A stretch of 64,000 nucleotides of DNA, taken from Thermoplasmatota archaeon (GTDB lineage: Archaea > Thermoplasmatota > Penumbrarchaeia > Penumbrarchaeales > EX4484-36). The stretch is taken from contig JAOZQA010000004.1 in NCBI GenBank assembly GCA_029932465.1, positions 7,980-71,979 of the forward strand. The letters are read 5' to 3'. The notes beneath the pieces were generated by a model. It saw only the letters and a list, made by a program, of their open reading frames with translations. It made no database searches and was not told the origin of the DNA. A program made the position numbers and the translations under genes. Position 1 is the stretch's first letter. The number at the start of each line of letters is the position of its first letter. Of this stretch, positions 12,559-33,899 are shown piece after piece.

Positions 12559-12592
12559 CTCATCATCTCAATTTTTAAGGCAACCGTGCGTC

Positions 12593-13812: not shown

Positions 13813-13821
13813 GGGCCCACC

Positions 13822-16389: not shown

Positions 16390-16390
16390 C

Positions 16391-17290: not shown

Positions 17291-20200
17291 TCAAGATAGA
17301 CGGTATCCCCGCAGCACTGCTCTGTGCCGGCATCCCTTGTACTTCCCTCCACACCGGTGAGGAGGGAGACACCATAGACAACTACATCGTCTATAAGAAC
17401 CCCCTTGATGTCGCTTGTGGGGTCCTCGTAGTGATTGTAGCCATCTTCATTTGTGGTGACTACCCTGAACCGGAGTAGGACTACGAACCCCCTCCAAGGG
17501 GTGAGGTCCACGCTCAGCCTGCTTAAAGTTGAGGCCTCAACCCATCCGTTTCCGGAGTCGATTCCCGTCATGCTCTTCCCTGACTCATTGTATTCGGAGC
17601 CCGAGACTCCCCAGCCCCACCTCACACCCAGGGTGATGGCAGTCCATGTGAGACCATTGTCAGCGGATACCTCAACCCTTACACAATCCGGTGGGGCTCC
17701 GGAGAGGCTGTTTATGTTAAACCTGGTGTAGAAAGAGAGGCGAGCCCACCTGGCGTTAGTTAGGTCTATAGGTCTTGTTATGAGGGAGTTGTCTATGCCG
17801 CTTTTAAGGTAATCGTCACCCCCCTCCCCATTATGGTTCCACCAGGCGTGGGTTCCGCTTCTAGACAGTTTTCCGATCTCCTCCCCTACAGCCTCGTAGA
17901 GCTCCCATTTGTCCGTTGCGGAAGCGTTTGCTGGGAGGGAATCAGACCTTGAAACCCTGATTTCAAGATCGTCTATCCACCAGCCGAAGCCTGTCCCCTG
18001 GCCATACTGCTTATAATAGAGCCGTACATATACCTCGTCCCTGGAGCTCTCGGGAACATACGGGAGCAGGTCCACCTTAGCAAACTCCCAGTCGAATGTC
18101 CCGGTTGAAGACTTTCCGTTCCAGCACCACAGGATTCTTCTTCCGAAATCGTCCCTCCAAATCACGGGCTGACCTTCGCTGTCTGTGAGAAGGAGGTTAC
18201 CGCTGTAAGATGTCAGAGGGGTGACATAGAGCCAGTCTATGTCAGAGGTGTTGTCAGGTCCGTCACCATCAGTGTCCACCCCCCTGAAACCCAACATGAC
18301 AACTCCTCCATTTTTGCCCGGCAGTATGTTATATTTATGCCAGAAGGTCAGATACGCGGAAGTGGAGCCAGAGATGGAGAAGGGACCCACTGTAAAGTAC
18401 TTGTCCTCGTTTCTCTCGAATGAACCGCCACCACTCCCACCGCCTCCAGTCATAAATGCCCAAAGGCCTCCCTCTGTGCTCCTACCGTTCACAATGTTCC
18501 TGGCGACCACCTTCCAGAAATATTCTGTATTCTCGTTCAGGGTGTAGGGTAAGCTGTAGTACTTCTCTGTAAGGCCAGAGGCTATGAGAGTCAGCGAGTC
18601 CTGCGAGAGGCCCAGGTAGACGTCATATCTTATATTCTCATTGTTGCCGCCCGGGTCATCACCACCACTCCATGAGAGGGTCAGGGTTGTGGGTACATCG
18701 AGCTCACCGTTTGGAGGATAGGGGTCCACTGGAGGTGTCGGGGCTTCCTCCCCCGGGGCGATCCTCTCTCCGGTGATTCTTATATCGTCTATATACCATC
18801 CCCTTTCCTTCACAGATTCATCCGAAGCGAAGTGGAACGCGATGTATATGTTGACCCCCTCGTAATCGGATGGGATGTTCACCGTGTATTGTCTCCACGT
18901 CCGGGCCCAGCTACTGGTTGAGCTGAATGCACCATCTCCGTTCTCATAGCACAGGGTATTATAGACAGAGGAGTCGCTTCTTATGGTATTGGGGTATCCT
19001 CCATCAGGGACCAGCTTGTGCCATGTCGAGCCATCGGTGGATATCTCCACGATCCCGCCGTCCCATCGGCTTTCTATATCATACCAAGCCCAGAAGGTGA
19101 GTGTGACCGAGGTGTACTGAAGAAGGCTTATCTGCGGGGAAACTAGTCTTACGTTTACCATGTTCCGATAGTTTTTACCGTCCCGAGTGCACCACGAATG
19201 GGAGGAAGAGTGAGACCTTTCGTCACCGATCTCCCATTCACTTGAGGGCTGACCCTGGATTGTCCATCCTATGTTTCCCCCCTCCACATCATCAGAGAAG
19301 ATGGTCTCTGTCTGTCTTGTATCCCCTCTTGTGTCCTCCTTAAAGGGGGAGGAACCTCCCCGGGTAACCTCCCCCCCGGAGACTATCTCCTCGGCTATCT
19401 CGCCGAAGACGTCTGAGAGGTGTGAGGGGTCATATACGTAGTAGTACTTGCCGTTGTTCTCACCACCCCCATTGGAGGAGTGTGCCAAGGCCCACAGGTC
19501 ATACTCAACCCTGTGGTATGAGCGCTCTGTGAGGACATCGTTCGTCTGCCAGTAGGTATTCCACGGGGGCGTGTCGCTATCTTCCTCCTCCGGATAATCC
19601 GGGTCATGATATCCGCTGGAGAGAAGCCCCACAGTGTAGATGGTAAAGGGGGCCATGAGAAGACCCTGACGATCTCCGGCACTGGTTCCAGCACTTGAAC
19701 TATAATAATAGTTCTCATAATATGTGTTCATCCACTGCCCCAGACTATTTGAGGGGTCCTCATAATCGTACCTTCCCGGACCGTATTCAAAATCCCTGTT
19801 GGCCTCACCATCTGTAAACACCAACATATATGGTATTCTCCCGGAGGGGGCAGGGTAAAGTTTACTGGCAGCGGCTCCCACAGTGTCGTAAAGAGGAGTC
19901 CACCCGTTGGCCCATAGTCCATCAATGGTATCGTTTAACGAGGCTTTGTTCTCTGACGTGCAGAAGGTCCAATCAACAAAGAGGTTTGGAGAGTTGGGTC
20001 CTTCGTTAGTGAAAGTATATATGGCGACTCTGTCGTAGGGCGTGAGGTAGCTTATGAACACCTTGGCCGCCTCCTTCAGGCGGTCTATCTTCCGCACCCC
20101 GCCCACTTCCCAGTCCATTGAACCAGAGGTGTCAAGAACCATGACGATATCTAGCGGGTTTCTTGATGTTCCCCCGGGGGGCTCATAGAGTCTGAAAGAC

Positions 20201-23200
20201 CTTGGATGGCTGTAGGAGGTGTTGGTATCCTCGCTCACCCCATAGGAGAGGTCCTCGTCCCAAGAGGATATTACATCGGTGTACGTCTCCATCTGTGGAT
20301 CGTAGAAGTCCAGGGGTGATTCCCCGTTGACCCTCGCCACTACGGATTCGTGGCGGAAATTGGCAGTGCCGTTCTCCATGTCATCGTAGAAGAAGTAGAT
20401 GTTGACGCTCTTTGACGGAGCGTTGTTTATGTAATCAAAAATCTCGTCGTAATTGTTGTAGAAGTCTATGAATACCCTCACCTGTCTTATCCCGGCGAAA
20501 AGAGGGGTCCATATGGCTTCTACGGTGACCTCGTCACCAGGCTCTAAGAACACCGTTGTGCTGTGTATGAGCTTTCTGCCGTCCATAAACCTGACAGTAC
20601 CCCCGCCGGGGACCCCTCCGTAGTTTCCTACGGTTAGAGATAGCACATAACTACCTCCCACTACCGGATGGGGATCGTCTATTGAGATGTCTATGTTCCT
20701 ACCGTAGAGTTCCGGCTGATAGATGACCACCCCAAACCAGTGGAGGAGGAAATAGAAGGCCTCGGTGCTTCTGTGTTCAAGGTATGGAAAGATGCCGGAG
20801 GGAAGAGAGAAGGAGAGATATGCCGTGTGGAAATAAGAAGGACCGGTATTCTCAAGATAGATCGCTACTGGGTCCTCGCCGTCAAGTGTGTCTGTATAGT
20901 AGAGGTAACCCGCTTCGTCTTCCTGAGGTGTGCCGTCTACACTGCCGGAGTCGTCAGGTCTCTTAATAAGTTCAAGTCCTGTTACGGTGGATGTGGGTAT
21001 GACTATCCCATGGGTCTTTACGTCATCTCCTGTGGTGCCGTACAGGGCTGTTCCTGCGTTCTCATTGCCGTAGCCAGCAAGGCCTATGTAATTGTAGAGG
21101 AACTCCCAGTTCACATCTCCATTCTGGTACATTGGATTGGGAGCGATCTCCGGAAGGATGTAATGTCCCACAAGCAGGAAGGCCTCGGAGTAGTTCCCCA
21201 TGTACTCAGACTCACGGTAATCTCCTTTGAGGTATCTCTCGATCTCTATCCTGTCCTCCGCGGTTATGGTCTCAATACCTGAGTAGCCACCACCACCGCT
21301 CTCCCCGCAATTCCAGATGACCATGTTGTATCTTTTCATCGTCTCAACGTCTGGTCCCGTCCCGATCTGGACGTTCTCCCCGTCGAAGACGTTCACAACC
21401 CTATACACCTCATATTGAAGGCCTAGGAGCTCAAGGAAGTGAACAATAGCCCCTGTTGTGTCCTCAAGCATGCCCCACTCAGGGGGCTCCGTGGCACCTC
21501 CGTCGAACCTCCAGTTGTTGGGGTTGTCCTCCTCATAGCCGTTCTCATCCCCATTGGGCCCATAGGTATCATTCCATGAGCCGTCGTCGTCTACGACGAG
21601 GATATTGTTCTGGGCCACCAGGGAGGTGACGGTGGAAGTGGAGTAGGAGATGTCGTTGTTTTCCTCGTTGATTTCCTGTATGATGTGATATGGGTCCACA
21701 ACAGCCCTGAAGGTGTGAAGTCCCACGCTGGTGGCCTTCCACTTTTTGGTAACTACTGTCTCCCCACCCCCTCCAGGAAGGTTCAGAATGTCTCTTGGGT
21801 TGTCCTCAGTAGGGTCCGGGAAATTGGGAGTGATTCTTCTCTCTATACCATCTGGGCCCGTAACGTAGAATTCCACAGAGGTGGAGAGTGTATCGGGCCC
21901 GTTGTTTCTCACGGTGACCCGCACCTCCACGGTGTCCATGAACTTTGGAGGATAGGAACCCTCAACGACCACAAGTTCCATCTTTGATATGGCCAGATCG
22001 TTCCCTATTCTCAGCTCCCAGCGGAACCACTTCATTATTCTCGCCGCCATACTGATTTTCTCGTTCAGATATCTCACGTGGGAGGGGCTCACCGGGAGGT
22101 AGACGGAGCGATAGGCGACCGTTTCACCGCCGGGTGTGGTCTCTTCGTGGGAGTGGTATATGCCATAGGGTTCTTTGACGGGAGCGTTGTAGTCCTGTAC
22201 ATACAGCATCCCCACGGGATCTGACGTGTCAGAGCCGTACTCCAGAGGATAAGTCCATTCGGCGTAGTCGTCGGCTCCTGCAGCGCTGTCATCCATCAGC
22301 ACCGAATAGGAGTCATTCCCTTCCCAGCCTGTTATGGGATTTGAGGGAGTCTCCCCGTAGATAACCCCGGGGAGGTCTTTGTCCACGGCGAAGCGCTTCA
22401 CACCCAGGTAGTTCCTTACGAATATCATAGCGTCCTCCCTTTCGGTGTTATACTTTACAAAAGAGGTAGTGTCTGGCAGAACGTAGTATCCGTTTTCGTC
22501 GGGGGAGATGCTCATGTAATCCTCGTTTAAGCCCTTCAGGACGTTCTCACCCACGATCCAGAGGTATCCTCCGTTGTCCAGGAACTTCATCATTTCCTCC
22601 ACATTCCCACCATATGTAGCGTCAGCGTTGCATGTTAGCGGATTCTCCTCTTTTCCGGTAACCCATATGACAATATCGTAATCCTTCATCTGGGGTGCTC
22701 CCACAGTGGGCGGGTCTACGTATTCGTAGGCGGGAACATCCCTCAGAACCCCTGCATCTGTCATAGCCTGAGCTATGAAGAGCCGGTCCACCTGGACCCC
22801 CGCACCAGTCAAGGATTCTACAACATGGCTGGTGACGTCGTTTTCACTACCGGTCTCCGCCCCGTCATCGTCAACAAGGAGTATGCGGGGTATGATCTGA
22901 AGCGTAAGGGAAGCGTAGTTGTCGGTGGGGTCGTCTCCCTCAAGGGCCCCCTCCTCCTCGCTGGAGAAGACGATTCTCTGAGGCGGAAGGGACTCTCCCC
23001 TCAGGTCATAAGGCAGAACTGTGTAATCCCCGGGGTTAGCGTCCACCGCCATATAGATGGTCAGAATCTTGTCAGGGTTTGCACTTCTAGCGGTGAAAGT
23101 CAGGGATATGGAGACCTGACCTGCCACGGGAATTATGAGGTGCCTTATTTTGCATGTGGGGAAGGTGTAATCGTTCCCGTCCAGATCCTGGCCGTAGAGC

Positions 23201-24435
23201 TCAGCCCACTTCACCTCCTTCCATATTTCATCCCTGTCCGTATTCCCGGGCATGAAATCTGGTGGAGGCGGCCCGGGGTTGAAGTTCTCATAATCCTCCT
23301 TATAATCATCATCCTCCGGGTCGGGGATGTCGTCTATCCAGTTGAAGATCTCACCACCCTCCGTGGTTATGGGCTCCGTGCTAACTACCAGCATCACGTC
23401 ATCGTCATACCCTATGGGTTGATCCCCGAGGTTTTTCACAAATAGAGTGACGGTGACCTCGTCTCCTGTCTTGGGGTAGGTCTTGGAGAGCTGGACATCC
23501 TTGGAGGAGACTACAGGGTTGGGGCCGGATGGCCTCGTTGGAACTATGCTTATTGAAACGTCGAGATTCCTGTAACGGTAGTTGTTGGAGGTTGATATCT
23601 CCCCGGATGTTAAAGGAGTGATCCTGCAGTGCATTTTGTGGATACCTAAGGGGTAGGGCACGGTCCAGCTTGGATAAATGTAGTTGATGGTTTCACCGTA
23701 GGTGAGCTCCCCCGGGGTTGGGTCATCCTCTGGGGTTTGCAGCACACCGTCTCCGACATAGCTCTCCCGGTCGTAGAACTGGACGGTTATGTTATCATGG
23801 GGTACGGGGGCCGTGCCCAGGTTGGTGACAGTAGCCACGAGGTCTAATGGTTCACCCACAAGGACCTCATCGGACCTCTGACCGTATCGCAGGAAGTAGA
23901 ACTCCTCCACGGCGAGGTCAGGAAGGGAGGTGGAGGGAGGCGCCTCCAGGGACTCTGAGAAGACCACAGTTTTCTCCCCGTTAGCCTTCTGGTAGACCAC
24001 CTTCACCTCCAAGGGGAAGGTGGGTGTGGGGGATATGATCTTGCTCCAGGTCTCCCCGGGGCTCCAGAGGTCGTTATCGTCCCAGGAGCCAATACCTGTG
24101 GTGGAATAGTCACAGTCAGAGGCGGAGAAGGGCGACCCAGGGACATCCGCCCCGCTGCCGTCCTTCACAATAATCGTTGTGCGTGAGAGGAGAAGAGAGT
24201 CCCCCGCATTGTTCTCTACAAAAAGGACGAACTGGCCAGAGGGGTCCGTGGTGTAGCCGGAGGAGAGGCTCACGTAGACGCTCTCAACCTCTTTCACGTT
24301 ACCCGCCATGAAGAGGGCAACGGAGGATACAAGCACCACCGCTATGCCGACAAGAAGTACGGTTCCTATGGTCTCAGAAACACCCCGCGTCTTATTTGAT
24401 CTTCTCATACCATTCGCCTCCTTATGAAGCTCCAC
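17236..24435 (-). CDS. Giant (2399 aa) secreted protein with a class III signal peptide, CARDB-like domains, two GATase1-like domains, a vWA domain, an FN3-like domain and three C-terminal lectin/MAM-like jelly-roll domains
   Basis: N-terminus RRSNKTRG|VSETIGTVLLVGIAVVLVSSVALFMAG. Two repeats bear the motif (R/N)ILLVDDDG...YD(I/M)VIW. vWA MIDAS sequence DIVMVLDTSGSM ... LVFTDGEANRD at nt 20156..20121. C-terminal repeats carry W(W/Y)IDD(L/I)(E/R)I motifs. Paralogous to 24422..30328. Confidence 0.85.
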   Translation of the reverse strand: MELHKEANGMRRSNKTRGVSETIGTVLLVGIAVVLVSSVALFMAGNVKEVESVYVSLSSGYTTDPSGQFVLFVENNAGDSLLLSRTTIIVKDGSGADVPGSPFSASDCDYSTTGIGSWDDNDLWSPGETWSKIISPTPTFPLEVKVVYQKANGEKTVVFSESLEAPPSTSLPDLAVEEFYFLRYGQRSDEVLVGEPLDLVATVTNLGTAPVPHDNITVQFYDRESYVGDGVLQTPEDDPTPGELTYGETINYIYPSWTVPYPLGIHKMHCRITPLTSGEISTSNNYRYRNLDVSISIVPTRPSGPNPVVSSKDVQLSKTYPKTGDEVTVTLFVKNLGDQPIGYDDDVMLVVSTEPITTEGGEIFNWIDDIPDPEDDDYKEDYENFNPGPPPPDFMPGNTDRDEIWKEVKWAELYGQDLDGNDYTFPTCKIRHLIIPVAGQVSISLTFTARSANPDKILTIYMAVDANPGDYTVLPYDLRGESLPPQRIVFSSEEEGALEGDDPTDNYASLTLQIIPRILLVDDDGAETGSENDVTSHVVESLTGAGVQVDRLFIAQAMTDAGVLRDVPAYEYVDPPTVGAPQMKDYDIVIWVTGKEENPLTCNADATYGGNVEEMMKFLDNGGYLWIVGENVLKGLNEDYMSISPDENGYYVLPDTTSFVKYNTEREDAMIFVRNYLGVKRFAVDKDLPGVIYGETPSNPITGWEGNDSYSVLMDDSAAGADDYAEWTYPLEYGSDTSDPVGMLYVQDYNAPVKEPYGIYHSHEETTPGGETVAYRSVYLPVSPSHVRYLNEKISMAARIMKWFRWELRIGNDLAISKMELVVVEGSYPPKFMDTVEVRVTVRNNGPDTLSTSVEFYVTGPDGIERRITPNFPDPTEDNPRDILNLPGGGGETVVTKKWKATSVGLHTFRAVVDPYHIIQEINEENNDISYSTSTVTSLVAQNNILVVDDDGSWNDTYGPNGDENGYEEDNPNNWRFDGGATEPPEWGMLEDTTGAIVHFLELLGLQYEVYRVVNVFDGENVQIGTGPDVETMKRYNMVIWNCGESGGGGYSGIETITAEDRIEIERYLKGDYRESEYMGNYSEAFLLVGHYILPEIAPNPMYQNGDVNWEFLYNYIGLAGYGNENAGTALYGTTGDDVKTHGIVIPTSTVTGLELIKRPDDSGSVDGTPQEDEAGYLYYTDTLDGEDPVAIYLENTGPSYFHTAYLSFSLPSGIFPYLEHRSTEAFYFLLHWFGVVIYQPELYGRNIDISIDDPHPVVGGSYVLSLTVGNYGGVPGGGTVRFMDGRKLIHSTTVFLEPGDEVTVEAIWTPLFAGIRQVRVFIDFYNNYDEIFDYINNAPSKSVNIYFFYDDMENGTANFRHESVVARVNGESPLDFYDPQMETYTDVISSWDEDLSYGVSEDTNTSYSHPRSFRLYEPPGGTSRNPLDIVMVLDTSGSMDWEVGGVRKIDRLKEAAKVFISYLTPYDRVAIYTFTNEGPNSPNLFVDWTFCTSENKASLNDTIDGLWANGWTPLYDTVGAAASKLYPAPSGRIPYMLVFTDGEANRDFEYGPGRYDYEDPSNSLGQWMNTYYENYYYSSSAGTSAGDRQGLLMAPFTIYTVGLLSSGYHDPDYPEEEDSDTPPWNTYWQTNDVLTERSYHRVEYDLWALAHSSNGGGENNGKYYYVYDPSHLSDVFGEIAEEIVSGGEVTRGGSSPFKEDTRGDTRQTETIFSDDVEGGNIGWTIQGQPSSEWEIGDERSHSSSHSWCTRDGKNYRNMVNVRLVSPQISLLQYTSVTLTFWAWYDIESRWDGGIVEISTDGSTWHKLVPDGGYPNTIRSDSSVYNTLCYENGDGAFSSTSSWARTWRQYTVNIPSDYEGVNIYIAFHFASDESVKERGWYIDDIRITGERIAPGEEAPTPPVDPYPPNGELDVPTTLTLSWSGGDDPGGNNENIRYDVYLGLSQDSLTLIASGLTEKYYSLPYTLNENTEYFWKVVARNIVNGRSTEGGLWAFMTGGGGSGGGSFERNEDKYFTVGPFSISGSTSAYLTFWHKYNILPGKNGGVVMLGFRGVDTDGDGPDNTSDIDWLYVTPLTSYSGNLLLTDSEGQPVIWRDDFGRRILWCWNGKSSTGTFDWEFAKVDLLPYVPESSRDEVYVRLYYKQYGQGTGFGWWIDDLEIRVSRSDSLPANASATDKWELYEAVGEEIGKLSRSGTHAWWNHNGEGGDDYLKSGIDNSLITRPIDLTNARWARLSFYTRFNINSLSGAPPDCVRVEVSADNGLTWTAITLGVRWGWGVSGSEYNESGKSMTGIDSGNGWVEASTLSRLSVDLTPWRGFVVLLRFRVVTTNEDGYNHYEDPTSDIKGVLIDDVVVYGVSLLTGVEGSTRDAGTEQCCGDTVYLEWWERMMQTYGDPQGVEL

Positions 24436-27400
24436 TTATTACAATATCATCCAGATAGACCCCTTTGAAGAGATCGGGGTCCTCATAATGGTCATATGGC
24501 TTGGGACCCACAAGGGGATAGCCGTTGGTCACCACCCTGAACCTTATATGGACGGTCTTTCCCCTATATGCGGTAAGGTCCCCCTGGAATCGGGTCAGCG
24601 TCTCTGAACTGACCCAATAATTGGCCTCCTCCGCAGTAAGGCCATCATCAGGGATTCCGGTATAGGACTTGCCATCGGCTATACCGTCGGAGAGGTCCCC
24701 CTCCGTTCCCGTTACACCCCATCCAATTCTCACACCATTGTGGAGGGTTCTGAAGCTCTTCCAGTTGTCTGTTGAGATCTCGACCCTCAGGCAGTCGGGC
24801 GGGAACCCAGAGTTGGAGTTTATGTTAAACCGTACGTAGAAGGTGAGACGAGCCCATTTAGCGCTCGTTAAGTCCACTGGCCTTAAATATAAAGCTGCAT
24901 CCGCCCCCGGTTTGAGCCCATAGGTGGGATCCACGAAGGACCAGAAGTGCGAACCGGAGTGAGCTATCACCTCATCCTCGGCCAGATACCACTGATCGGC
25001 TATGGCAGAGGTGGGGGGCTGTGTATCGGATCTGCTGATCCTCACCTCAACATCATCTATAAACCACCCCTCACCCACCCCCCACGTGACAGCCAGGTAG
25101 AGGAACATTATCTTAACATGGCTCCTGCCCCTGAATGGGGTGAGGTCAACGGTCACCCTCTCCCAGTCGTACCTTCCACCTGCGGATACACCGTTGTAGA
25201 CCCATCGCATCTCTCTTCCATAGTCATCGTATCTGTAAGACTCGAGATCCAGGTTTCCACTGTACTGCCCCTGAGGAATGACATATCTATAGCGCCATTC
25301 CGTCCCGTCGTCGGAGGTGCCCACCAGAACTACCCCACCGTTACTGCCCACATCCATCTGATATTTCTGGAAATAAACCAATCTAGCGCTGTTAGCCCCG
25401 AGAAGGGAGAACTCCTCTGTGATGATGTATCTATCCCCGGGCTCCACGCAGGCTGGAGCCCTTGTTCCTCCCCTGCTGTACTGTTCACTATCTGTGGGAG
25501 TCCCAGCGCCGGAGGATCTGGTCAATGTCTGAAGTTTCTTCAGCTCATACGCCACTGTATTGAAGACGCTGAGGAGGGAGTTCTCGTCGGGAGAATAGAA
25601 GTACTTGCCGCCCTGGGAGGTGGTAGCCATCCTCCACAGGTTGTACTCGACGGTTCCCGATTCCACCCCTCCAGTGTAATAGGCGTAGGTATTGATGCTC
25701 TTCTCGGCAGGCTTTGTAGATGTAGATGGGGAGTTGGGTGGGGAGTGATGCTCCAGATTGAGTCCAATGGTAAACACAGGAAGGGGTGCGTTCAGAAGAC
25801 CGTTTCTTGTTGTCGGCGAGGGGAAGGTAACGGTGTACCAGAAGCCATAGGATGAAGCGTCTCCTCCGTACTTCCCGAAATGGCTGGTGTAAGTCACCAC
25901 CTGGCCAAAGCTATGCCAGGGGCACCATCGTTTGCTACCCCTCTCCAGTGTGTTCAGATCGTTGTTATCGTCGGGTTCGGGGGGCTCGCTGTCGTCCCCC
26001 AGACGGTCCACCCCGTCGGAGAGGATAACCACCGCGGGCACGTGTCCGGCGGCGTGGCCGTAATAGGCATAGGAGATCCCCGCCCCCGACATATCCCAGA
26101 TCTGGGTTACCGCTTTAGGGGTCATGGAATCTATCTGGGAGTTTATGTAGGCCCTGCCACTTTCAGTGAGCTGTGTGAAGGAGACATTGTGGACATTCCC
26201 AGACCCTGCATACCACATGAGTGCAACCCTATCCTGGTCGGATAGCTGGGCTACCAGGGCCTTGGCAGCCACCTTGAGCTTTGCTATTGGGTCTCCTGAC
26301 ATTGAAGAGGAGGTGTCCATGCATATTACTACGTCAAGCGGGGGTGGCGGTTCCTGACCTGACCAGAACGAGAAGGAGGCGGAGTGTGAATAGCGGCTAG
26401 TGCTGTTAAAGCCGCTAGCCTCCGACCAATCCTTCACTATGTTGGTATATTGCTCCTGCGTCTCATCCAGGAACTCAAGTGCGTTCTCCCCGTTTATCCT
26501 GACTATTGTGGCTTCGTGCTCCCAACTGCTGGCATCGGTATCCTCCAGATCATCGAAGAAGAAATAGACGGGAACATTGATGAAGGGATTGTTATTCCCC
26601 TCGAAGACTTCCTCTACATCCTGGTAGTAGTCCGCCTTCACCATGATCACCCTCTGGCCAGCGAGGGTGGGAATCCAGGTGGTCTCAACGGTGGCCACTC
26701 CCCCGGGAGGAATGTATATTGTGTCTGTTTTAAGTATGAGGTCCCCGTCGTATAGTCTCACAACGAAGGAGCCACCGGCTCCGCCCAGATTGGCTACCAA
26801 CGTTTTAATAAGAAAAACATCCCCCAGCTGGTGGACAGTCCCCGACACATTGATGTCCACAGCCCTCGATACTATTTCAGGACTCTCCACAGTGAGGTTG
26901 AGGTCTCTGAAGAGCCCAAATAGCATCTCCACAATGCCGTCAGAGTTTGCTGTTCCTATCTGGAGAGGTATGCTTATCAGCTCGGCTAGGTAGCCCTGGT
27001 CTTCGGAGCTGTGAAGAATCCCTAAGGGGGTCTGCCCCGCCTCCCCTACCCCATAGAGGGTAGTGCTAACGCTCTCTTCCCCAAAAAGCGGATTCTCTGC
27101 TCTCTCCTCCACACCTTCCCCGTAGACCTCACGCAAAAATGTCCCCTCAAGTCCATGGAAGGGGAGTAGGTAGCTATCATCCGACGTTCCCGTGATGGTT
27201 GTGTAACCCGTCCTACCTGTGAACGTACCGACCCCCATGTGCCTATACAGGAAGGGGTCTGAGACCGACCCGGGGGCCCCCAAAATATCAGTGAAGAGAC
27301 ACCCGGAGATCACCACCAGTCTGGGAGTTACATTGGTAAGGTAGACGCTTTCCTCATAAGATTTCGTGAGGTACTGGATCAGGTAGTCTCTGTCGTCTGC

Positions 27401-30328
27401 CGTGAGGGTCTCAGGCAGGAGCGGATCTATCTCTTCCTCCGGGAGAACCCAGATGACCGAGGTGTATCTCATCAGGGTCTCTATGTCCGGGCCATCGCTG
27501 AAAAGATAGGCGGAGCCCGAATAGGTGTTCACAACCCTGTAGAGGTCGTATGAATAGCCGTAGAGCTCAAGCTGTTCTGCTATCTTATGGGTGAGGTCCT
27601 CCCGCAGGGCCGAGGGAGGTGGGGCAACTCCTCCTTCAAGGTCCCAGTTGGAAAAGGTCTCGTTCTCCTCCGAGTAGCTCTCATCATCGTCTATAAGTAG
27701 TATTCTCTTCTCGATCACGATTGAGGTTATTGTTGTTGGGGAGTAGGAGAGGTCATTATTGTTCTCGTTCACCTCCTGAAGTATCCTGAAGGGGTCTACC
27801 ACAGCTCTGAAAGTGATCCTGCCCTCTAAGGTGGCTCTCCATGTCTTTGTGCATATCTCCTCCCCTCCGTTCCCCGGGAGGTTAACTATGTCCTGTGGAT
27901 TGTCCACCCCATCGGGATATCTGGAGGGGATTCTCCTCTCGATGTTGTCCTCTCCTATTACGTAGAATATCACCGTTGTGGATACAGCCGTGGGGCCGTT
28001 GTTTCTCACCCATACGCGTATGAGGATATCATCCATGTACTTGGGGGTCTCAACACCCTCGGGCAACTCGATCTCCATCCTTACTATAGCCAGATCATCT
28101 CCTATCTCTATTTCCCAGCCGAACCATTTGAGAACGCTAGCGGCCAGATTAATTCTTTCGTTGAGATAAGTAATAGTTGTATAGTCGAAGAAGCTCCATA
28201 GGATCCTGTAGAAGGGGGTCTCCACCCCCGCCTCTATATAGGTGGAGTCCTCGCCTGCAGGAAGGTCATATGTGAGTCTTCCTGCGGGTAATACTCCATT
28301 GGGAAAATCCCCCTCGTCTCGGTACCCCACTTCGCTGAAAGTGATCTCCTCGTCGGAGGAGAAATTCAGATTCATAAGTCCCTTCTCCGGGTCAGTGACG
28401 TTATCGCCTCTAACCCCGTAATAACGGTCTGCCACCGAAGCGTCAAGATATACACTCTTTAGGTAGGTATAATCGTAAAGGAGCTCCTTCATACCTGCGT
28501 CCACGGTTCCAACGGGAGTGTAACTGCTAAGGTCTAGTATAGAATTATCAAAGGCTCCCTCAAGCACACCCCTTCCAATTATCCATATCTTCTGGTCATT
28601 GTTGAGACAAGCTTCTATGTCAGCAAGGTTGTGGTAGAGCACTGGAGAGGGATTTTCTCCAGCGATCCATATAATAACGTCATACTCTTCTAGGGCGGGA
28701 ACAGGCACTTCGGTGGGCGAGGGGTAATTGAACTTGGGAGCCCATATATATGTCTCCTCTCCCAGAAGCCTTACCTGGGAGGCCACAAAGATTATATCGG
28801 GGGTAATGCCCGCCCCGGAGAGAGCCTCCACAATAATAGTAGTTCTATCGTCGGAGGACCCTGTTGAGGCCCCGTCGTCATCCACAACAAGTATTTTGGG
28901 CGTCACCTGGATGTTTATAAGGTTCAGGTTGTCCTCATCCTTATCCCCGTCAAGGAAAGTGTAGACTTCTTCCGGCGGGGTCCCCAGCTGATCTACTGGC
29001 TGAACGGTGTAGTTGCGCTGGTCGCAATCCACCGCGAAGTAGATGGGAACAATATTGCTTCCCTCAAAGAGCTCTGCCACCCATCGGAACTGGAAAGCGA
29101 TCTTTCCGGAGGCGGGGATCGCAAAATTTCTTATCTTTACTGTTGGGAAGGTGGTATCGTTTCCGTACAGGGATTGCCCGTGAGAGGAGGCCCAATCCTG
29201 AGGGTCCACACCTTCGGGGACCTCCGGGACATCGTCTATCCAGGATAACACTTTCCTGTTCTCTCCCAGATTTAGCTGCTTTATGGGGTACAAGGACATT
29301 ACAAAAAGGAGATGGTGAGATGGTAGAACTGGGGAGGGTCCAAGGTTTTTCACGTAGACCGTTATGGTCACCTCTTCCCCTCTTTTCGGATACCTGTTGC
29401 TGAAAAATATGTCGTCTATTGAGACCGCAGGATTCGGGCCCTGGCCGGGGGAGAAGTACTGCTGTATTGTCACATTGAATTGGTAGGTTCTTTCATTGTT
29501 ATACAGACGTGCCTCCCCTTCAAAGGGCGGCAGGACCCTTGCCAGGAGGGTATGGCTTCCCAGAACGGACGTGGTGAATGACCTTTTCACTAAGGTAATA
29601 CTATGCCCTGGAAGTAGCTGTTCGGGAGGTGTGCCTACAACACCATCTCCGTCTTCGGTGGCTTCCGCAATGGGCATCTTACGGATCAGATTTCCGTCAA
29701 GGTAGAGAAATATCTGCAAGGTGGAGGTCTGAACGGGTACGCCGCCGTTGTTTGAGATAACCATGTATATATCGGCAATGCTATCTTTGACCAGCAATGT
29801 TAGCCTCCTCCCATAGCGCTGAAGGTAGAGGTCCTCCACGGAGAGATCGGCTTTAGTTGCGGATTTAGGTTCCACCATATTGGTGTATCTGTAGAGCACA
29901 CGTCCCCCCCCCTCTCCGGTGTTAAGAACCCTAACATCCACCTTTTCAGCCCCGGGAGGCAGTGATGTCATGCTGTGAGAGTAAGTCTCTCCTATCTCCC
30001 AGAGACTGTCCCCATCCCATACGCCTATTCGCGAGATTAGATATTCGCAATCAGTCCCCTCAAATACATCTCTGGTACCTTCAGTGCTCACTATTATCTG
30101 GATCTTTCCCAAGGGGAGGGGTTTGCCAGCTATATGTGTGATCGTTATGTATTTTACCCCACCGATCTCCACCACCTCTGAGCTGAACCTTTCTATCTCG
30201 AGGACTTCCTTTGTGGGGTGATTGGTGACAAAGATCAAAATGGCTGCACCTGCTATGGTGGATGAAAGTAGCAGAAGTATGGTGCCAAGGGCTTCCGATA
30301 CACCCCAGAATGATACGGACGTGCGCAT
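24422..30328 (-). CDS. Giant (1968 aa) secreted protein with a class III-like signal peptide, CARDB-like domains, two GATase1-like domains, a vWA domain and C-terminal lectin/MAM-like domains (paralog of 17236..24435)
   Basis: N-terminus MRTSVSFWG|VSEALGTILLLLSSTIAGAAILIFV. Repeats PKILVVDDDG...YDVIIWIAG and KRILLIDDDESY...YTSVIWVL. vWA sequence LDVVICMDTSSSMSGD at nt 26338..26300. C-terminal GWFIDDVEVRISRSD and YLDDIVISG. Overlaps the downstream giant gene by 14 nt. Confidence 0.85.
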   Translation of the reverse strand: MRTSVSFWGVSEALGTILLLLSSTIAGAAILIFVTNHPTKEVLEIERFSSEVVEIGGVKYITITHIAGKPLPLGKIQIIVSTEGTRDVFEGTDCEYLISRIGVWDGDSLWEIGETYSHSMTSLPPGAEKVDVRVLNTGEGGGRVLYRYTNMVEPKSATKADLSVEDLYLQRYGRRLTLLVKDSIADIYMVISNNGGVPVQTSTLQIFLYLDGNLIRKMPIAEATEDGDGVVGTPPEQLLPGHSITLVKRSFTTSVLGSHTLLARVLPPFEGEARLYNNERTYQFNVTIQQYFSPGQGPNPAVSIDDIFFSNRYPKRGEEVTITVYVKNLGPSPVLPSHHLLFVMSLYPIKQLNLGENRKVLSWIDDVPEVPEGVDPQDWASSHGQSLYGNDTTFPTVKIRNFAIPASGKIAFQFRWVAELFEGSNIVPIYFAVDCDQRNYTVQPVDQLGTPPEEVYTFLDGDKDEDNLNLINIQVTPKILVVDDDGASTGSSDDRTTIIVEALSGAGITPDIIFVASQVRLLGEETYIWAPKFNYPSPTEVPVPALEEYDVIIWIAGENPSPVLYHNLADIEACLNNDQKIWIIGRGVLEGAFDNSILDLSSYTPVGTVDAGMKELLYDYTYLKSVYLDASVADRYYGVRGDNVTDPEKGLMNLNFSSDEEITFSEVGYRDEGDFPNGVLPAGRLTYDLPAGEDSTYIEAGVETPFYRILWSFFDYTTITYLNERINLAASVLKWFGWEIEIGDDLAIVRMEIELPEGVETPKYMDDILIRVWVRNNGPTAVSTTVIFYVIGEDNIERRIPSRYPDGVDNPQDIVNLPGNGGEEICTKTWRATLEGRITFRAVVDPFRILQEVNENNNDLSYSPTTITSIVIEKRILLIDDDESYSEENETFSNWDLEGGVAPPPSALREDLTHKIAEQLELYGYSYDLYRVVNTYSGSAYLFSDGPDIETLMRYTSVIWVLPEEEIDPLLPETLTADDRDYLIQYLTKSYEESVYLTNVTPRLVVISGCLFTDILGAPGSVSDPFLYRHMGVGTFTGRTGYTTITGTSDDSYLLPFHGLEGTFLREVYGEGVEERAENPLFGEESVSTTLYGVGEAGQTPLGILHSSEDQGYLAELISIPLQIGTANSDGIVEMLFGLFRDLNLTVESPEIVSRAVDINVSGTVHQLGDVFLIKTLVANLGGAGGSFVVRLYDGDLILKTDTIYIPPGGVATVETTWIPTLAGQRVIMVKADYYQDVEEVFEGNNNPFINVPVYFFFDDLEDTDASSWEHEATIVRINGENALEFLDETQEQYTNIVKDWSEASGFNSTSRYSHSASFSFWSGQEPPPPLDVVICMDTSSSMSGDPIAKLKVAAKALVAQLSDQDRVALMWYAGSGNVHNVSFTQLTESGRAYINSQIDSMTPKAVTQIWDMSGAGISYAYYGHAAGHVPAVVILSDGVDRLGDDSEPPEPDDNNDLNTLERGSKRWCPWHSFGQVVTYTSHFGKYGGDASSYGFWYTVTFPSPTTRNGLLNAPLPVFTIGLNLEHHSPPNSPSTSTKPAEKSINTYAYYTGGVESGTVEYNLWRMATTSQGGKYFYSPDENSLLSVFNTVAYELKKLQTLTRSSGAGTPTDSEQYSRGGTRAPACVEPGDRYIITEEFSLLGANSARLVYFQKYQMDVGSNGGVVLVGTSDDGTEWRYRYVIPQGQYSGNLDLESYRYDDYGREMRWVYNGVSAGGRYDWERVTVDLTPFRGRSHVKIMFLYLAVTWGVGEGWFIDDVEVRISRSDTQPPTSAIADQWYLAEDEVIAHSGSHFWSFVDPTYGLKPGADAALYLRPVDLTSAKWARLTFYVRFNINSNSGFPPDCLRVEISTDNWKSFRTLHNGVRIGWGVTGTEGDLSDGIADGKSYTGIPDDGLTAEEANYWVSSETLTRFQGDLTAYRGKTVHIRFRVVTNGYPLVGPKPYDHYEDPDLFKGVYLDDIVISGAS

Positions 30329-30351: not shown

Positions 30352-30372
30352 TTAACTCCGAGGTGTTTATAA
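30352..30372 (-). promoter_or_regulatory. T-tract plus TATA-like box (minus-strand CTTTTTTATAAA) between the J-domain gene stop and the giant-adhesin operon start; probable terminator and promoter
   Basis: Minus-strand reading of 30329..30402: ...cagcatcttttttataaacacctcggag...ATG. The TATA-like element lies about 45 nt upstream of the 30328 start. Confidence 0.4.
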
Positions 30373-30402
30373 AAAAGATGCTGTAGATATCTGATAATTA
30401 TC

Positions 30403-33165
30403 TCAATCTTCCACGGTGAATGTGCTCTCCCTGTACTGGTCGTAGAGAGCCCTCTTCTCCGGGTTCAAAAGGATTTCCTTAGCTTTGTTGATCCTTATCA
30501 TCATCTCCCGCGACTCCTCCGGTTCCACACCAAGTCTGAAGGCTCTATCGGGGTGATATTTTGCCGCTAGCCTCCTGTAGGCACTCTTTATCTCCTCTTC
30601 TGTGGCATCCGGGGTGATACCCAGAACGTCATAAAGGTCATAGTCAAAGTCAAATTCATCGGAGAGGTCAACCCCCGCACTTCCAGCCGTAGAATAACCG
30701 GCCTGCGCGTAGTTTTTGCTGCCGTATACGGTCCCGAAGGGGAACCCCCCGAAGGTCTCGGCGGTGCCCGGCACCACCTCCATTATCACCTCTTCTCCCT
30801 CCTCTCCCCCTTCCTCAACGTCAAAGGAGACCTCCTCTTCCTCCTCGGTTTCCTCCCTCTTAGGCGCAGCTTTAGCCTCCTTTTCTTTCTCTGCTTTTAC
30901 TTCTCTCGTCTTTTTGCTCTTCCTGCCCGACAGAACCACGGGAACTGAGACCACAATGACAATAATTATCAGAAGATAATAGAGTTCTGGGGGTGAGAGA
31001 AGATCAAGAATCCTGTCCACAATGCTCTCCTTCTCCGTTCTCGCAGGTGCAGGGAGGACCTTTACCGGGAAGACCACGCTGACTCTGTTGCCATGGCCGT
31101 CATCAACCACTAAGGTTATGTTGTAATCACCCGCTTTGAGTTCTTTCAGGGACAGCGAGGGTGAGCTTATCGGATAGACCCCTTCTTTGTCGGAACGCCA
31201 TACGAAGATCAGATGGTCCCCGTCAGGGTCGAAGGTTCCCGAGGCGTTTATTGAGACGTCATCCCCCTCCCTCAGTTCAAATGAAGGCCCGGTGTCCCCA
31301 CCCACAACCTCTCCGTCAACTACAATGATCGGTGCGGTATTTACCTTGATTTGATACGGGCTTGATAGGGCCCATCCGTTTCCTGCAATGTCCTTTGCTC
31401 TGAACTGCACGAAGTTGTTGTAGCTGCTTGTGAGGTTGAGGGAGACCTCAACAGTTATGTGATCCTGGCTGTAGATTGTCAGATTCTCAACGGGGAGCCA
31501 TGGCGAAAATCCGGCGATTCCCTCTATAGAATACCTGTACTGAATGGTTGAGGTGTTGATCCCTGAGCCCTCGGAGGGGTCCTCAATATCTACCTTGAAG
31601 GTCACCTTGGTGGTGTGGAGGATAACATCCGACGACGGCCGAGGGTTCGCAAATGTGGGAGGCTGGGTATCCACAAAGATCTGAACGGGTTCTGTTGTAA
31701 GGAGGTTCCCAACATTGTCAGATATCTGCCACATCACGTAGTTCTCTCTTCCTTCCGTGAGGTTTGACAGATAATGAATTAGAACACCATTTTCAAAGTA
31801 TGCGCCTTGGGGCACCTTCCAGGATGGACCAGTGTTACCGGAGGTGCAAGAGTAATGAAGGGAGCTCTCGTCAAGCCCCGAGCCCCCCACGTCATAGAAA
31901 TGAACTTCGCACTTTATGTATGTGGTATTGTACCAGACCCCCTGGAAGGGTTCAATCACTTCTGCCACAGGGGCGAGGTTGTCTACAAGGACCTCGATCC
32001 TTGCCCCCTCGCCCAGGTTTCCCACCCTGTCTACGGCTGCAACAGTTATGTTCACCCAGCCAGCATGGGGTAGATTTATCCTCATTCTGCTATACGCGGA
32101 TATGTTGAGAGGACCATCATCGATTCCAAGGAGGAACCCTCCCACCCCACTTCCCACATCCCCACCGCTCTCCCACGAGAGAAAAACGGTGAGGTCGTTG
32201 TCATAGCTGCTCGGTGTGTCTGTGGGAGAGTCGGGGTGCATCTTCAGGTTTTGAACGGGATTTGGAGGGGTTGAATCCACATTCAGGAGGAACTCGACCT
32301 CGGACCTCAAATGGGGAGCGGCCATGCCCTCTATTCCTATACGGTAGGTGACGTTCTGTGCCGTTAAGAGGGGTGTAATTGTAGTTATGTTGACCCATCC
32401 GTCCACTGGAGCTTCAAATATTATTTGGCCTGTCTCCGAACAGTTTAGGGTTAACGTATAGAGCCATGTAGGGGGAACATAGACTGAGGGGTCCTCATAT
32501 CTGAGGCGAATTCCTGAAAACGTTATGGAGTAGTTACCCGGGACCCATTCCCCTCGGAAGATCTCCTCACCCATCTCCCCCCGAACTTTCAGGTTTCCAG
32601 AAAAGAAGAGTGTGCCCTTCACTCTGAAAGCGTCTGTAACTGTTGTCTGAACATCTCCCTCCGTGGTATTTGCCTCTGCCCGGAGGTCGCAGTAGTCCGT
32701 ATAGGTCCAGTTCCATGTGAAGGTGATGTAGAAGGTAACAGAGAGGAGCGAGAGGGGTGTGCTCTCAAGAACATTGGCACCGCCGAAGATCACATAGCCC
32801 CCCTCATCGGAGGAGTTCACTTTAAAGCTCCCTGTGCTCCTGTTCCATACGAAAAGGATATCATAGTAAGAGGGGAAAAGAATTGCGCGGACTTCCGTCA
32901 CCTCCCCCGGAGGGAGATCTTTCACCTCAACCGTTAGGTTGTACGGGCGGTAGAACGGAAAGCACGTCTTTCCATTCACGCCTTCCGAATCGAGGCTGAC
33001 GGAGATGGAGGCCTGTCTTGTAGTTATTGCAGAAGATAGGGGGACCGCAGTATTCAGGCTCCCTATTGTGGTGGTGAAGATGAGGAGGAGGATGACGAAA
33101 AGCGGTATGTGAGAATCACTGACAAAGTGTGCTGTTTCACGGCCCATATTCATCCATACACCCAT
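30403..33165 (-). CDS. Type I membrane protein: signal/anchor, long extracellular Ig-like/PKD-like array, single TM, K/E-rich cytoplasmic linker and C-terminal DnaJ J-domain
   Basis: 920 aa. TM LYYLLIIIVIVVSVPVVLSG, then KSKKTREVKAEKEKEAKAAPKREETEEEEE. C-terminal J-domain DYDLYDVLGITPDATEEEIKSAYRRLAAKYHPDRAF...KAKEILLNPEKRALYDQY carries the HPD motif. Confidence 0.8.
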   Translation of the reverse strand: MGVWMNMGRETAHFVSDSHIPLFVILLLIFTTTIGSLNTAVPLSSAITTRQASISVSLDSEGVNGKTCFPFYRPYNLTVEVKDLPPGEVTEVRAILFPSYYDILFVWNRSTGSFKVNSSDEGGYVIFGGANVLESTPLSLLSVTFYITFTWNWTYTDYCDLRAEANTTEGDVQTTVTDAFRVKGTLFFSGNLKVRGEMGEEIFRGEWVPGNYSITFSGIRLRYEDPSVYVPPTWLYTLTLNCSETGQIIFEAPVDGWVNITTITPLLTAQNVTYRIGIEGMAAPHLRSEVEFLLNVDSTPPNPVQNLKMHPDSPTDTPSSYDNDLTVFLSWESGGDVGSGVGGFLLGIDDGPLNISAYSRMRINLPHAGWVNITVAAVDRVGNLGEGARIEVLVDNLAPVAEVIEPFQGVWYNTTYIKCEVHFYDVGGSGLDESSLHYSCTSGNTGPSWKVPQGAYFENGVLIHYLSNLTEGRENYVMWQISDNVGNLLTTEPVQIFVDTQPPTFANPRPSSDVILHTTKVTFKVDIEDPSEGSGINTSTIQYRYSIEGIAGFSPWLPVENLTIYSQDHITVEVSLNLTSSYNNFVQFRAKDIAGNGWALSSPYQIKVNTAPIIVVDGEVVGGDTGPSFELREGDDVSINASGTFDPDGDHLIFVWRSDKEGVYPISSPSLSLKELKAGDYNITLVVDDGHGNRVSVVFPVKVLPAPARTEKESIVDRILDLLSPPELYYLLIIIVIVVSVPVVLSGRKSKKTREVKAEKEKEAKAAPKREETEEEEEVSFDVEEGGEEGEEVIMEVVPGTAETFGGFPFGTVYGSKNYAQAGYSTAGSAGVDLSDEFDFDYDLYDVLGITPDATEEEIKSAYRRLAAKYHPDRAFRLGVEPEESREMMIRINKAKEILLNPEKRALYDQYRESTFTVED

Positions 33166-33179
33166 AAGAGAAAGGGTAT

Positions 33180-33192
33180 TTTATACTTCTCA
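33180..33192 (-). promoter_or_regulatory. TATA-like box (minus strand TATAAAAT) about 30 nt upstream of the J-domain gene ATG
   Basis: gggtattttatact at 33178..33191. Confidence 0.3.
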
Positions 33193-33323
33193 TAATAAAC
33201 CGGAAATTTGAGAATGTGGAGGAAGCTTTAAGTCAGCGCATCCATGCGCGCGGGAAGGGAGAGGAAAAATATTTTATCTTTGTATCTTTATTTACCCTCA
33301 AAGGCACAAAAGGAGAATTTTCC

Positions 33324-33680: not shown

Positions 33681-33899
33681 ATGGGTTTTGAAAACCTGTC
33701 CAAATTAGAGAGGCAGCTTTACGAGTATATTAAAAGAAACGATTTTGTTACCACTCCCTGGTCCACAGCAAGGGCGGCCCAGCACCTGGGGGTTAGCAGA
33801 GAGGAGGTTTATAAGGCTCTTGCAAAACTCACCAAGGAAATCAGAGACAATATATGGATATTCTATCACGATGGCGCCCTCAGGGTTGTCGCTGAGTGA
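33681..33899 (+). CDS. Small winged-helix/HTH protein (hypothetical)
   Basis: 72 aa. LYEYIKRNDFVTTPWSTARAAQHLGVSREEVYKALAKL looks HTH-like. Overlaps the endA start by 4 nt. Confidence 0.45.
   Translation: MGFENLSKLERQLYEYIKRNDFVTTPWSTARAAQHLGVSREEVYKALAKLTKEIRDNIWIFYHDGALRVVAE

Follow-up and report, generated by a model that had tools for sequence, protein, structure and literature searches.

Why should a surface protein of an archaeon end in a J-domain, the module that engages Hsp70, and which process would the chaperone serve at such a site? The question is raised by a gene on the minus strand of a 64,000-nucleotide (nt) stretch from a Thermoplasmatota archaeon (assembly GCA_029932465.1, contig JAOZQA010000004.1, positions 7,980 to 71,979 of the forward strand); the whole stretch is called the window below, and coordinates are counted from its first letter. 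As judged from domain searches and topology prediction, the open reading frame (ORF) is that of a type I membrane protein with a signal peptide, an immunoglobulin (Ig)-like ectodomain, one transmembrane (TM) helix, a disordered charged linker and a C-terminal J-domain. The protein is an architectural variant of the membrane-anchored class C J-proteins and is probably tied to an adjacent adhesin cluster.

The protein and its J-domain

The gene and the parts of its product, in residues (aa) of the longest ORF, are laid out as follows.

30403..33165, minus strand: coding sequence of the membrane J-protein; longest ORF of 920 aa, the conserved start probably being M5 (nt 33153), which gives 916 aa
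33043..33165, minus strand: N-terminal region, Sec-type signal peptide or anchor, hydrophobic core at aa ~19-41 (hydrophobicity)
30985..33042, minus strand: ectodomain, aa 42-727, predicted all-beta Ig/fibronectin type III (FN3)-like sandwiches, the last domain PKD-like (AlphaFold2, Foldseek, Pfam)
30925..30984, minus strand: single TM helix, aa 728-747, LYYLLIIIVIVVSVPVVLSG (hydrophobic segment and AlphaFold2)
30640..30924, minus strand: cytoplasmic linker, aa 748-842 (~95 aa), predicted disordered (composition, alignment, low model confidence of ~30)
30424..30639, minus strand: J-domain, Pfam aa 843-909, helices modelled to aa 914, HPD at aa 871-873 (Pfam, PDB alignment, AlphaFold2)

An earlier annotation made from the letters alone, the sequence-only reading, gave a product of 920 aa. 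That is indeed the length of the longest ORF; the ATG of M5 is probably the conserved start, and the product would then have 916 aa. This ATG aligns with the start of the orthologue in 'Thermoplasmata archaeon AUK266', the only related species-representative genome, where the first ATG lies in another frame and the coding sequence opens at the ATG matching M5. The database entry for the window protein (P0001, 916 aa) also begins at M5.

The identity of the J-domain is clear. DnaJ (PF00226), the sole significant Pfam domain of the protein, matches aa 843-909 (nt 30439..30639) with E 9.7e-20 and 70.9 bits against a cut-off of 27.8, over profile positions 1-63 of 63. The HPD tripeptide at aa 871-873 (nt 30547..30555) lies in the context KYHPDR (aa 869-874), and the alignment of aa 842-916 to the J-domain of E. 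coli DnaJ (1bqz) runs from end to end, so that the basic helix II and the HPD of AYRRLAAKYHPDR stand opposite AYKRLAMKYHPDR of E. coli DnaJ. AlphaFold2 predicts the four-helix J fold with high confidence (helices 844-848, 856-875, 882-899 and 902-914; predicted local distance difference test score, pLDDT, ~95). The claim of a canonical HPD-bearing J-domain at the extreme C-terminus is thus upheld, and PF00226 is also above its cut-off in the AUK266 orthologue (68.8 bits) and in the distant relative P0133 (63.9 bits).

The best-scoring J-domain models are of the DnaJ type, not of the DjlA type, and the NCBIfam DnaJ equivalog models match over only their first ~70 positions. Because a Pfam scan of the protein found neither the zinc-finger (PF00684) nor the DnaJ C-terminal domain (PF01556), it is classed by domain content as a class C (type III) J-domain protein; and since the J-domain stands at the extreme C-terminus, no G/F region follows it. 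The HPD loop and helix II of a J-domain bind the ATP form of Hsp70 at the interface of nucleotide-binding domain and linker, whereupon hydrolysis locks Hsp70 on a nearby polypeptide. Class C J-proteins direct this activation to one site or client (PMC8215388).

No region of the protein is better conserved than the J-domain, which is under purifying selection. Its identity to the AUK266 orthologue is 83%, where the ectodomain reaches 55-62%, the linker 54% and the TM helix 35%; relative to P0133 it is 52%, and that of the ectodomain 25%. In the comparison with P0002, an 83%-identical relative, the J-domain has a ratio of nonsynonymous to synonymous substitution rates (dN/dS) of 0.10 and the linker one of 0.28. 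The highest conservation in the protein together with this low ratio disfavours a decorative or decaying J-domain.

The structure of the remainder was modelled with AlphaFold2 on a 45-sequence alignment (mean pLDDT 79.8). Residues 50-705, an ectodomain of ~660 aa, are predicted to be all-beta (pLDDT ~90), followed by a low-confidence hinge (aa 707-725), the TM helix (aa 727-748) and a linker (aa 749-832, pLDDT ~30) that is read as disordered. Foldseek against the PDB ranks tandem Ig/FN3 arrays best (the ROS1 'leg', neurofascin, CEA, GhpA, cytokine receptors, protocadherins and the S-layer proteins Sap and EA1); for the modelled ectodomain such matches confirm an Ig-like array and nothing more specific. 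The sequence-only reading had described about 700 aa of repeated PKD/Ig-like domains. At the level of the fold this stands. At the sequence level self-BLAST of the protein found no internal repeats, and resemblance to PKD is confined to aa ~613-705 and stays below threshold; the best Pfam scores of this kind (PKD_4, 17.9 bits; Big_3_3, 20 bits) lie under the cut-offs of 27.

Membrane topology

The protein has two hydrophobic segments, at aa ~19-41 and aa 728-747, of which the first accounts for the N-terminal signal or anchor of the sequence-only reading and the second coincides exactly with the single helix quoted there. The N-terminus is of the Sec type, without a class III (pilin) signal, and a Pfam scan of the protein found no Pilin_N match. 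Beyond the helix the linker runs from a basic stop-transfer cluster (RKSKKTREVK...) through an acidic run and a G/F/Y-rich stretch to a DEFxFxY motif, invariant in the J-bearing family, that closes it ahead of the J-domain; the cytoplasmic part contains 17.9% E and 8.1% K, in keeping with the K/E-rich linker first described.

Several lines of prediction concern orientation. Within 15 aa of the TM helix, eight K/R residues follow it and one precedes it. The ectodomain (~687 aa) carries 18 N-X-S/T sequons, against 6.0 +/- 2.2 in shuffled sequences (0 of 2000 shuffles reach 18), and the 173-aa tail carries none. All six family members agree in the positive-inside pattern, and in all six sequons are enriched 2.4- to 3.2-fold in the ectodomain and essentially lacking from the tail; P0133 has a textbook Sec signal peptide. 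Because the N-terminal signal, the positive-inside rule and the sequon distribution agree, the J-domain is placed in the cytoplasm, with a predicted N-glycosylated ectodomain outside. At the level of prediction, this is the arrangement initially proposed, a J-domain at the inner face of the membrane.

A conserved neighbourhood with giant pilin-like genes

The features that flank the J gene are these.

33175..33194, minus strand: 20-nt block TATGAGAAGTATAAAATACC with the TATA-like box TATAAAAT at nt 33178-33185, identical at the AUK266 locus (where the protein is 57% identical)
30360..30377, minus strand: intergenic element CTTTTTTATAAACACCTC, a T-run and then a TATA-like box, conserved in three orthologous loci
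24422..30328, minus strand: giant pilin-like protein 1, 1968 aa, with a class III signal-like N-terminus, weak Pilin_N, CARDB and VWA
17236..24435, minus strand: giant pilin-like protein 2, 2399 aa, with Pilin_N, CARDB, VWA and a MAM-like domain
15520..17290, minus strand: two small pilin-like proteins that close the same-strand cluster, one of 299 aa and one of 289 aa (weak DUF7289 in the 289-aa protein)

The J gene lies upstream of the first giant gene at a spacing of 74 nt. The two giants are paralogues, 30% identical over ~1,900 aa and 43% over the C-terminal ~350 aa, and the N-termini of all four downstream proteins are class III (archaeal pilin-type), on the pattern ...G|VSE.xGTxLL.... 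The cluster as a whole (15520-30328, minus strand) resembles extreme 'modular pilins'.

The order of J gene followed by giant Pilin_N/VWA genes is found in the window and at the related loci L002 and L004. At the AUK266 locus the synteny extends through PheT, LonB, the anchor-T protein, a 1,001-aa surface protein, the tRNA endonuclease, a helix-turn-helix (HTH) protein, a PRC-barrel protein, the J-protein, giant 1 and giant 2, and so says little by itself on a specific link between J-protein and pilins. The more telling case is the distant branch of the family. On L085/L086 a gene for a 2,236-aa Pilin_N/CARDB/VWA protein lies 166 nt downstream of the J gene; its product shares 28-33% identity with the giants of the window, and another pilin-like giant comes next. 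Homologues of the genes upstream in the window were not found on these contigs.

The J gene thus stands beside a giant pilin pair in every case in which the contig is long enough; the contig of P0133 is too short for context, and that of L087 ends 280 nt past the J gene. Related contigs also end short of the 299- and 289-aa genes, and the conservation therefore covers the J gene and the giants. The adjacency to giant pilin-like genes noted at the outset is accordingly conserved, including in a branch that is ~29% identical and has an unrelated opposite flank. A functional link is proposed because J gene and giants have stayed adjacent in branches that are only ~29% identical, although the genes on the opposite side are not the same; this conserved arrangement is the main evidence that suggests the link.

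The two flanking elements bear on transcription. The box TATAAAAT ends 24 nt ahead of the M5 ATG, and the TATGAGAAGTATAAAATACC block is a putative promoter of a leaderless mRNA; CTTTTTTATAAACACCTC would combine a putative J-gene terminator with the promoter of the first giant gene. A scan with sigma-70 and intrinsic-terminator models gave background-level counts and was set aside, such models not being meaningful for an archaeon.

A proposed function

The reading that is tentatively preferred is that the J-protein works with the adjacent giant pilin-like adhesins by concentrating Hsp70 at the site where their precursors are held, inserted or assembled; as a composite of several steps, it falls somewhat short of an even chance. 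After Sec-dependent insertion about six or seven N-glycosylated Ig-like domains would form a stalk on the outside of the cell, a single helix would span the membrane, and the flexible charged tether of ~95 residues would keep the J-domain just beneath it. So tethered, the J-domain would move within a small volume at the inner face of the membrane, right below the extracellular stalk; there it would dock ATP-bound DnaK and trigger hydrolysis, whereupon Hsp70 would clamp polypeptides. Hsp70 would in this way be concentrated where the giant (2,000-2,400 aa) VWA/CARDB pilin-like precursors are held, inserted or assembled, and the ectodomain may contact or dock on the same pilin-like structure outside the cell.

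The need for a chaperone is proposed because giants with a single N-terminal pilin helix would cross the membrane almost whole and unfolded without SecA; to our knowledge archaea lack SecA and have no known motor for post-translational export. Holding precursors in an export-competent state, or remodelling them, is a classic task of Hsp70. We infer Hsp70 recruitment, the identity of the client and the contact between ectodomain and pilin with unequal assurance: that the J-domain recruits DnaK is much likelier than the composite reading, whereas the client assignment is much less certain. In its boldest form the proposal would make J-protein and DnaK a dedicated cis-side station that holds, feeds or assembles pilin-like adhesins of more than 2,000 aa, the Ig stalk marking the site outside; so specific a version is unlikely.

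Several observations weigh against the preferred reading. The neighbourhood is conserved in only three independent lineages. About 145 relatives of the stalk carry other tails and no J-domain. Since the J gene and the giants are each preceded by a conserved TATA-like element, with a T-run in the spacer that separates them, separate promoters are favoured over a single operon: the two probably form a conserved neighbourhood with promoters of their own, and co-transcription is not supported. BLAST found no relationship of the ectodomain to the giants or to neighbouring surface proteins. The 64-kb window contains no pilus ATPase, platform protein or prepilin peptidase, so that no machine is defined, and there is no dnaK or grpE among its ORFs.

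A common stalk with a rare tail

The strongest rival proposal starts from the relatives of the ectodomain. An exhaustive HMMER search over 1.84 billion cluster representatives returned 168 proteins at E<=1e-30, nearly all of them 1,000-2,300 aa long and matching only aa ~57-760, that is, ectodomain and TM helix; the homology includes the helix and the basic stop-transfer cluster. By sequence homology, then, the ectodomain is a stalk common to at least 168 surface-protein clusters and is not special to the J-protein: it belongs to a large family with other heads and tails. The relatives without a J-domain have N-terminal FG-GAP repeats or a laminin-G domain, and their tails of ~30 to 330 aa are of several kinds: P/Q-rich, with a conserved motif of the LELLEKKMLTGEI type, or with a terminal zinc ribbon. 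A phmmer scan for the J-domain over the top 150 matches and P0001 recovered only the P0001/P0002 cluster, P0133 and an unrelated protein with six J-domains. On this evidence the J-domain is one rare tail among several on a shared stalk module.

Several members of the stalk family (e.g. P0008, P0030, P0041, P0023) show an integrin-like layout of FG-GAP propeller or laminin-G head, Ig-like stalk, TM helix and tail. Such tails, of 60-330 aa, are P/Q-rich and often carry KKLELLEKKMLTGEI..LY.KL, SHOCT-like in appearance, or a C-terminal zinc ribbon.

Since the relatives function with other tails and without a J-domain, the stalk should have a role of its own. The J-protein could be an autonomous receptor or adhesin whose tail couples an outside event to Hsp70, or whose own oligomers are disassembled or turned over by Hsp70 in the manner of auxilin and clathrin, adjacency to the pilin genes then reflecting shared regulation or surface location and not a chaperone-client relation. 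The homology of aa ~57-760 to at least 168 clusters with heads and diverse tails speaks for this, as do the separate promoter-like elements of J gene and giants and the lack of a sequence relationship between ectodomain and giants. The head domain, however, is missing in the J-bearing versions, none of which has any, and the giant pilin pair adjoins the J gene wherever the contig suffices, the distant branch included. This alternative is unlikely, and it is the one that survives best.

Across collections of ~15 billion proteins the J-bearing family comprises six sequences in two branches, which accords with the claim that the architecture is unusual in archaea. Branch A consists of P0001 (the protein of the window), P0002 at 83% identity to it and the AUK266 orthologue at 57%, of which L005 is a near-identical truncated copy. 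Branch B holds P0133, P0187 and P0188, which are ~29% identical to the window protein and 76-78% identical among themselves; P0188 is labelled 'J domain-containing protein [Thermoplasmata archaeon]' at NCBI. HPD is invariant in all six, together with DEFxFxYxLYxVL (running into helix I), EIK..YR.LAA.YHPDR, E..EMM...NK.KEIL and YD.Y, and all J-bearing members share an insertion of 4-5 residues after HPD.

Other searches added little. A word-indexed search with the full protein returned only the protein itself and one 83% relative, while a word-indexed profile of the C-terminus gave a flood of generic DnaJ and PKD matches that missed known members and is uninformative on rarity. In a metagenome scan 79 of 80 loci were unrelated J-domain genes, the sole member being the truncated L005. 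The long matches L006 and L012 were rejected, each being two separate J genes, and so was P0100, which matches through the J-domain alone; it is a protein of 679 aa with six near-identical tandem J-domains, each with an HPD, at spacers of ~40-55 aa. In the small proteins P0158 and P0170 the J-domain is N-terminal and precedes a single TM helix and an extracytoplasmic C-terminal part (with BspA-type leucine-rich repeats in P0158). They represent a mirror-image plan, and the general idea of a J-domain inside, a TM helix and an ectodomain outside is therefore not unique.

Membrane-tethered J-proteins in other systems

A second rival follows from what is known of membrane-tethered J-proteins elsewhere, namely that the protein is a general membrane proteostasis factor that brings Hsp70 to the membrane for many clients, its ectodomain being an anchor or an envelope-stress sensor. 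Known membrane-tethered class C J-domain proteins act so (PMC8215388), the long flexible tether would allow a wide reach, and the window is rich in other large TM-anchored surface proteins. A general factor would, however, be expected to be widespread, whereas the J-bearing family numbers just six sequences, split over two small branches, and its gene always stands beside the same gene pair; the proposal is accordingly improbable.

Among such proteins E. coli DjlA is alike in its C-terminal DnaJ-type J-domain at the cytoplasmic face, its single TM helix and its lack of G/F, zinc-finger and C-terminal domains. DjlA, however, has an N-terminal anchor, no ectodomain and a central TerB-like domain, whereas the archaeal protein is of type I with a signal peptide and a predicted glycosylated ectodomain of ~690 aa, and a Pfam scan of it found no TerB match. 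The DjlA model NF006948 reaches 30.6 bits against a cut-off of 162, over the J-domain only. Candidate DjlA-like relatives were discarded: P0179 and P0181 (TerB and DnaJ) are ordinary DjlA-type proteins that share only helices I-II, and the TerB-like ORF of the window (10414..11397) has no J-domain.

The eukaryotic proteins DNAJB12 and DNAJB14 likewise have membrane-tethered cytosolic J-domains. In the tail-anchored E. coli proteins DjlB and DjlC, which act with HscC, such a domain is thought to service membrane or secretory proteins (PMC8215388). In these four proteins the J-domain is N-terminal and the extracytoplasmic part minimal or small, and there is no Ig array and no link to pilins. The archaeal protein resembles DjlA, DjlB/DjlC and DNAJB12/14 in its mode of action but belongs to none of their families.

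Two further systems resemble the proposed function more than the architecture. Mycoplasma TopJ is a specialised J-protein for the assembly or function of the adhesin-bearing terminal organelle and is thus a functional analogue; TopJ models match the J-domain at 61-62 bits, but the match is to the J-domain alone (cut-offs 300 and 512 bits), and TopJ is cytoplasmic with an N-terminal J-domain. Sec63 and the ERdj proteins position Hsp70 at a translocation site by means of a membrane-anchored J-domain, and Sec63 J-domains in the PDB match at E ~2e-7; that of Sec63, however, lies on the trans (lumenal) side, where it serves the BiP ratchet, whereas that of the J-protein is predicted on the cis (cytoplasmic) side. 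The FG-GAP and laminin-G stalk proteins are homologous over aa ~57-760 and differ by their N-terminal heads and non-J tails.

For the neighbouring genes the comparison is with modular type IV pilins that carry VWA (Streptococcus sanguinis PilB) and with PilY1-type tip adhesins. The giants share with these the joining of a pilin-type N-terminus to large adhesive modules including VWA, but they are archaeal and ten-fold larger, and no gene for an assembly ATPase or platform lies nearby. We know of no J-protein partner of the bacterial modular-pilin systems. Literature searches turned up no description of a large extracellular Ig-like stalk and a cytoplasmic J-domain in one protein, and none of an archaeal membrane J-protein beside pilin-like adhesin genes. 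What is new is this architecture, the fact that it occurs in archaea, and its conserved association with genes for giant modular pilin-like proteins.

Hsp70 in the host lineage

The sequence-only reading had cautioned that many hyperthermophilic archaea lack Hsp70. That the host is an archaeon is seen from the tRNA-splicing endonuclease, LonB, NMD3 and EMG1 of the window. AUK266 is the metagenome-assembled genome (MAG) PB_MBMC_220 from 7-14 cm depth in Auka vent sediment of the Pescadero Basin, which GTDB assigns to family EX4484-36 of class EX4484-6 (Thermoplasmatota); its completeness is 74%, and its published predicted optimal growth temperature is 65 C (PMC9213671 supplement). The class has since been named Candidatus (Ca.) Penumbrarchaeia, and in a published survey DnaK is reported in MAGs of all families of EX4484-6/Ca. 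Penumbrarchaeia. DnaK/DnaJ/GrpE is ancestral in Thermoplasmatales and Aciduliprofundum (DHVE2) (PMC3564930). The worry about an Hsp70-less host thus fails at the level of the lineage: a candidate partner is reported at class level, a genome without Hsp70 is unlikely, and because the lineage has DnaK the J-protein is not paradoxical.

A crude estimate from composition came out far higher than 65 C. Eighteen cytoplasmic window proteins have a hyperthermophile-like IVYWREL of 0.456, corresponding by regression to ~92 C, and a charged-versus-polar bias (CvP) of +13.9. The ~92 C figure conflicts with the published 65 C and is treated as an overestimate from a small sample of housekeeping proteins; the discrepancy may reflect small-sample bias or a relative that lives hotter. 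On L024, from the metagenome of L005, a candidate host dnaK-dnaJ operon was set aside as uninformative; it looks bacterial (ABC ATPase, small heat-shock proteins).

A third rival, an orphan J-domain whose conserved HPD binds another partner in a host without Hsp70, draws on this thermophilic composition, on the published general absence of DnaK/DnaJ/GrpE from hyperthermophilic archaea and on the want of a dnaK within the 64-kb window. We know of no established Hsp70-independent role of an HPD J-domain. With DnaK reported throughout the class, 65 C for the closest MAG and DnaK-bearing archaea growing at 65-70 C (Aciduliprofundum at about 70 C), such a partner switch is very unlikely. Inverted topology with an extracellular J-domain, or a gene-call artefact that fuses two genes, has in its favour just the weakly charged N-terminal region of the window protein and is barely conceivable against an ORF uninterrupted in six sequences from independent assemblies, a positive-inside pattern and sequon distribution concordant in all six, and the Sec signal peptide of P0133.

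Other genes of the window

Several large surface proteins are encoded elsewhere in the window. The 1,001-aa protein at 34928-37933 (minus strand) has a signal peptide, two CarboxypepD_reg domains, three PKD domains, CARDB and a TM helix, and its K/E-rich tail of ~100 aa ends in KKDKKKGKKK, a plan like that of the J-protein without the J-domain. At 38190-39134 (minus strand) lies a 314-aa protein that matches the NCBIfam 'choice-of-anchor T' model at 267 bits (cut-off 70), with a signal peptide, a C-terminal TM helix and a basic tail; it adjoins LonB also in AUK266. A 1,575-aa gingipain-like protein (376-5103, plus strand; Peptidase_C25, 244 bits) has a propeptide and an Ig-like C-terminal domain and continues with Big/PKD domains and a C-terminal TM anchor, as a large secreted or anchored cysteine protease of a peptide-fermenting archaeon.

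The region 11443-14370 (minus strand) encodes three SPFH/Band 7 paralogues in a row (371, 204 and 202 aa) and, after them, an NfeD-like protein of 182 aa. The 327-aa product of 10414-11397, with an N-terminal HTH-like region and TerB-like repeats, is encoded downstream of the 371-aa SPFH gene. The tRNA-splicing endonuclease (33896-34894, plus strand) is a 332-aa two-unit form as the longest ORF, with a GTG start; this start is uncertain, since gene callers give a 294-aa version on contig L001. ARAGORN found no tRNA genes in the 64-kb window.

Significance

The stalk family has a meaning of its own, in that a common stalk with interchangeable cytoplasmic tails hints at transmembrane coupling. 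All carriers of the J-protein are uncultivated archaea of sediments and vents, which sets a practical limit. If the link to the pilin-like giants is true, the J-protein would offer a handle on the specialised jobs of a horizontally acquired Hsp70 system in archaea, and on the export and assembly of very large surface proteins in archaea that lack SecA. A dedicated station of J-protein and DnaK, if it exists, would be a previously unrecognised accessory component of the archaeal type IV pilin-like surface system.

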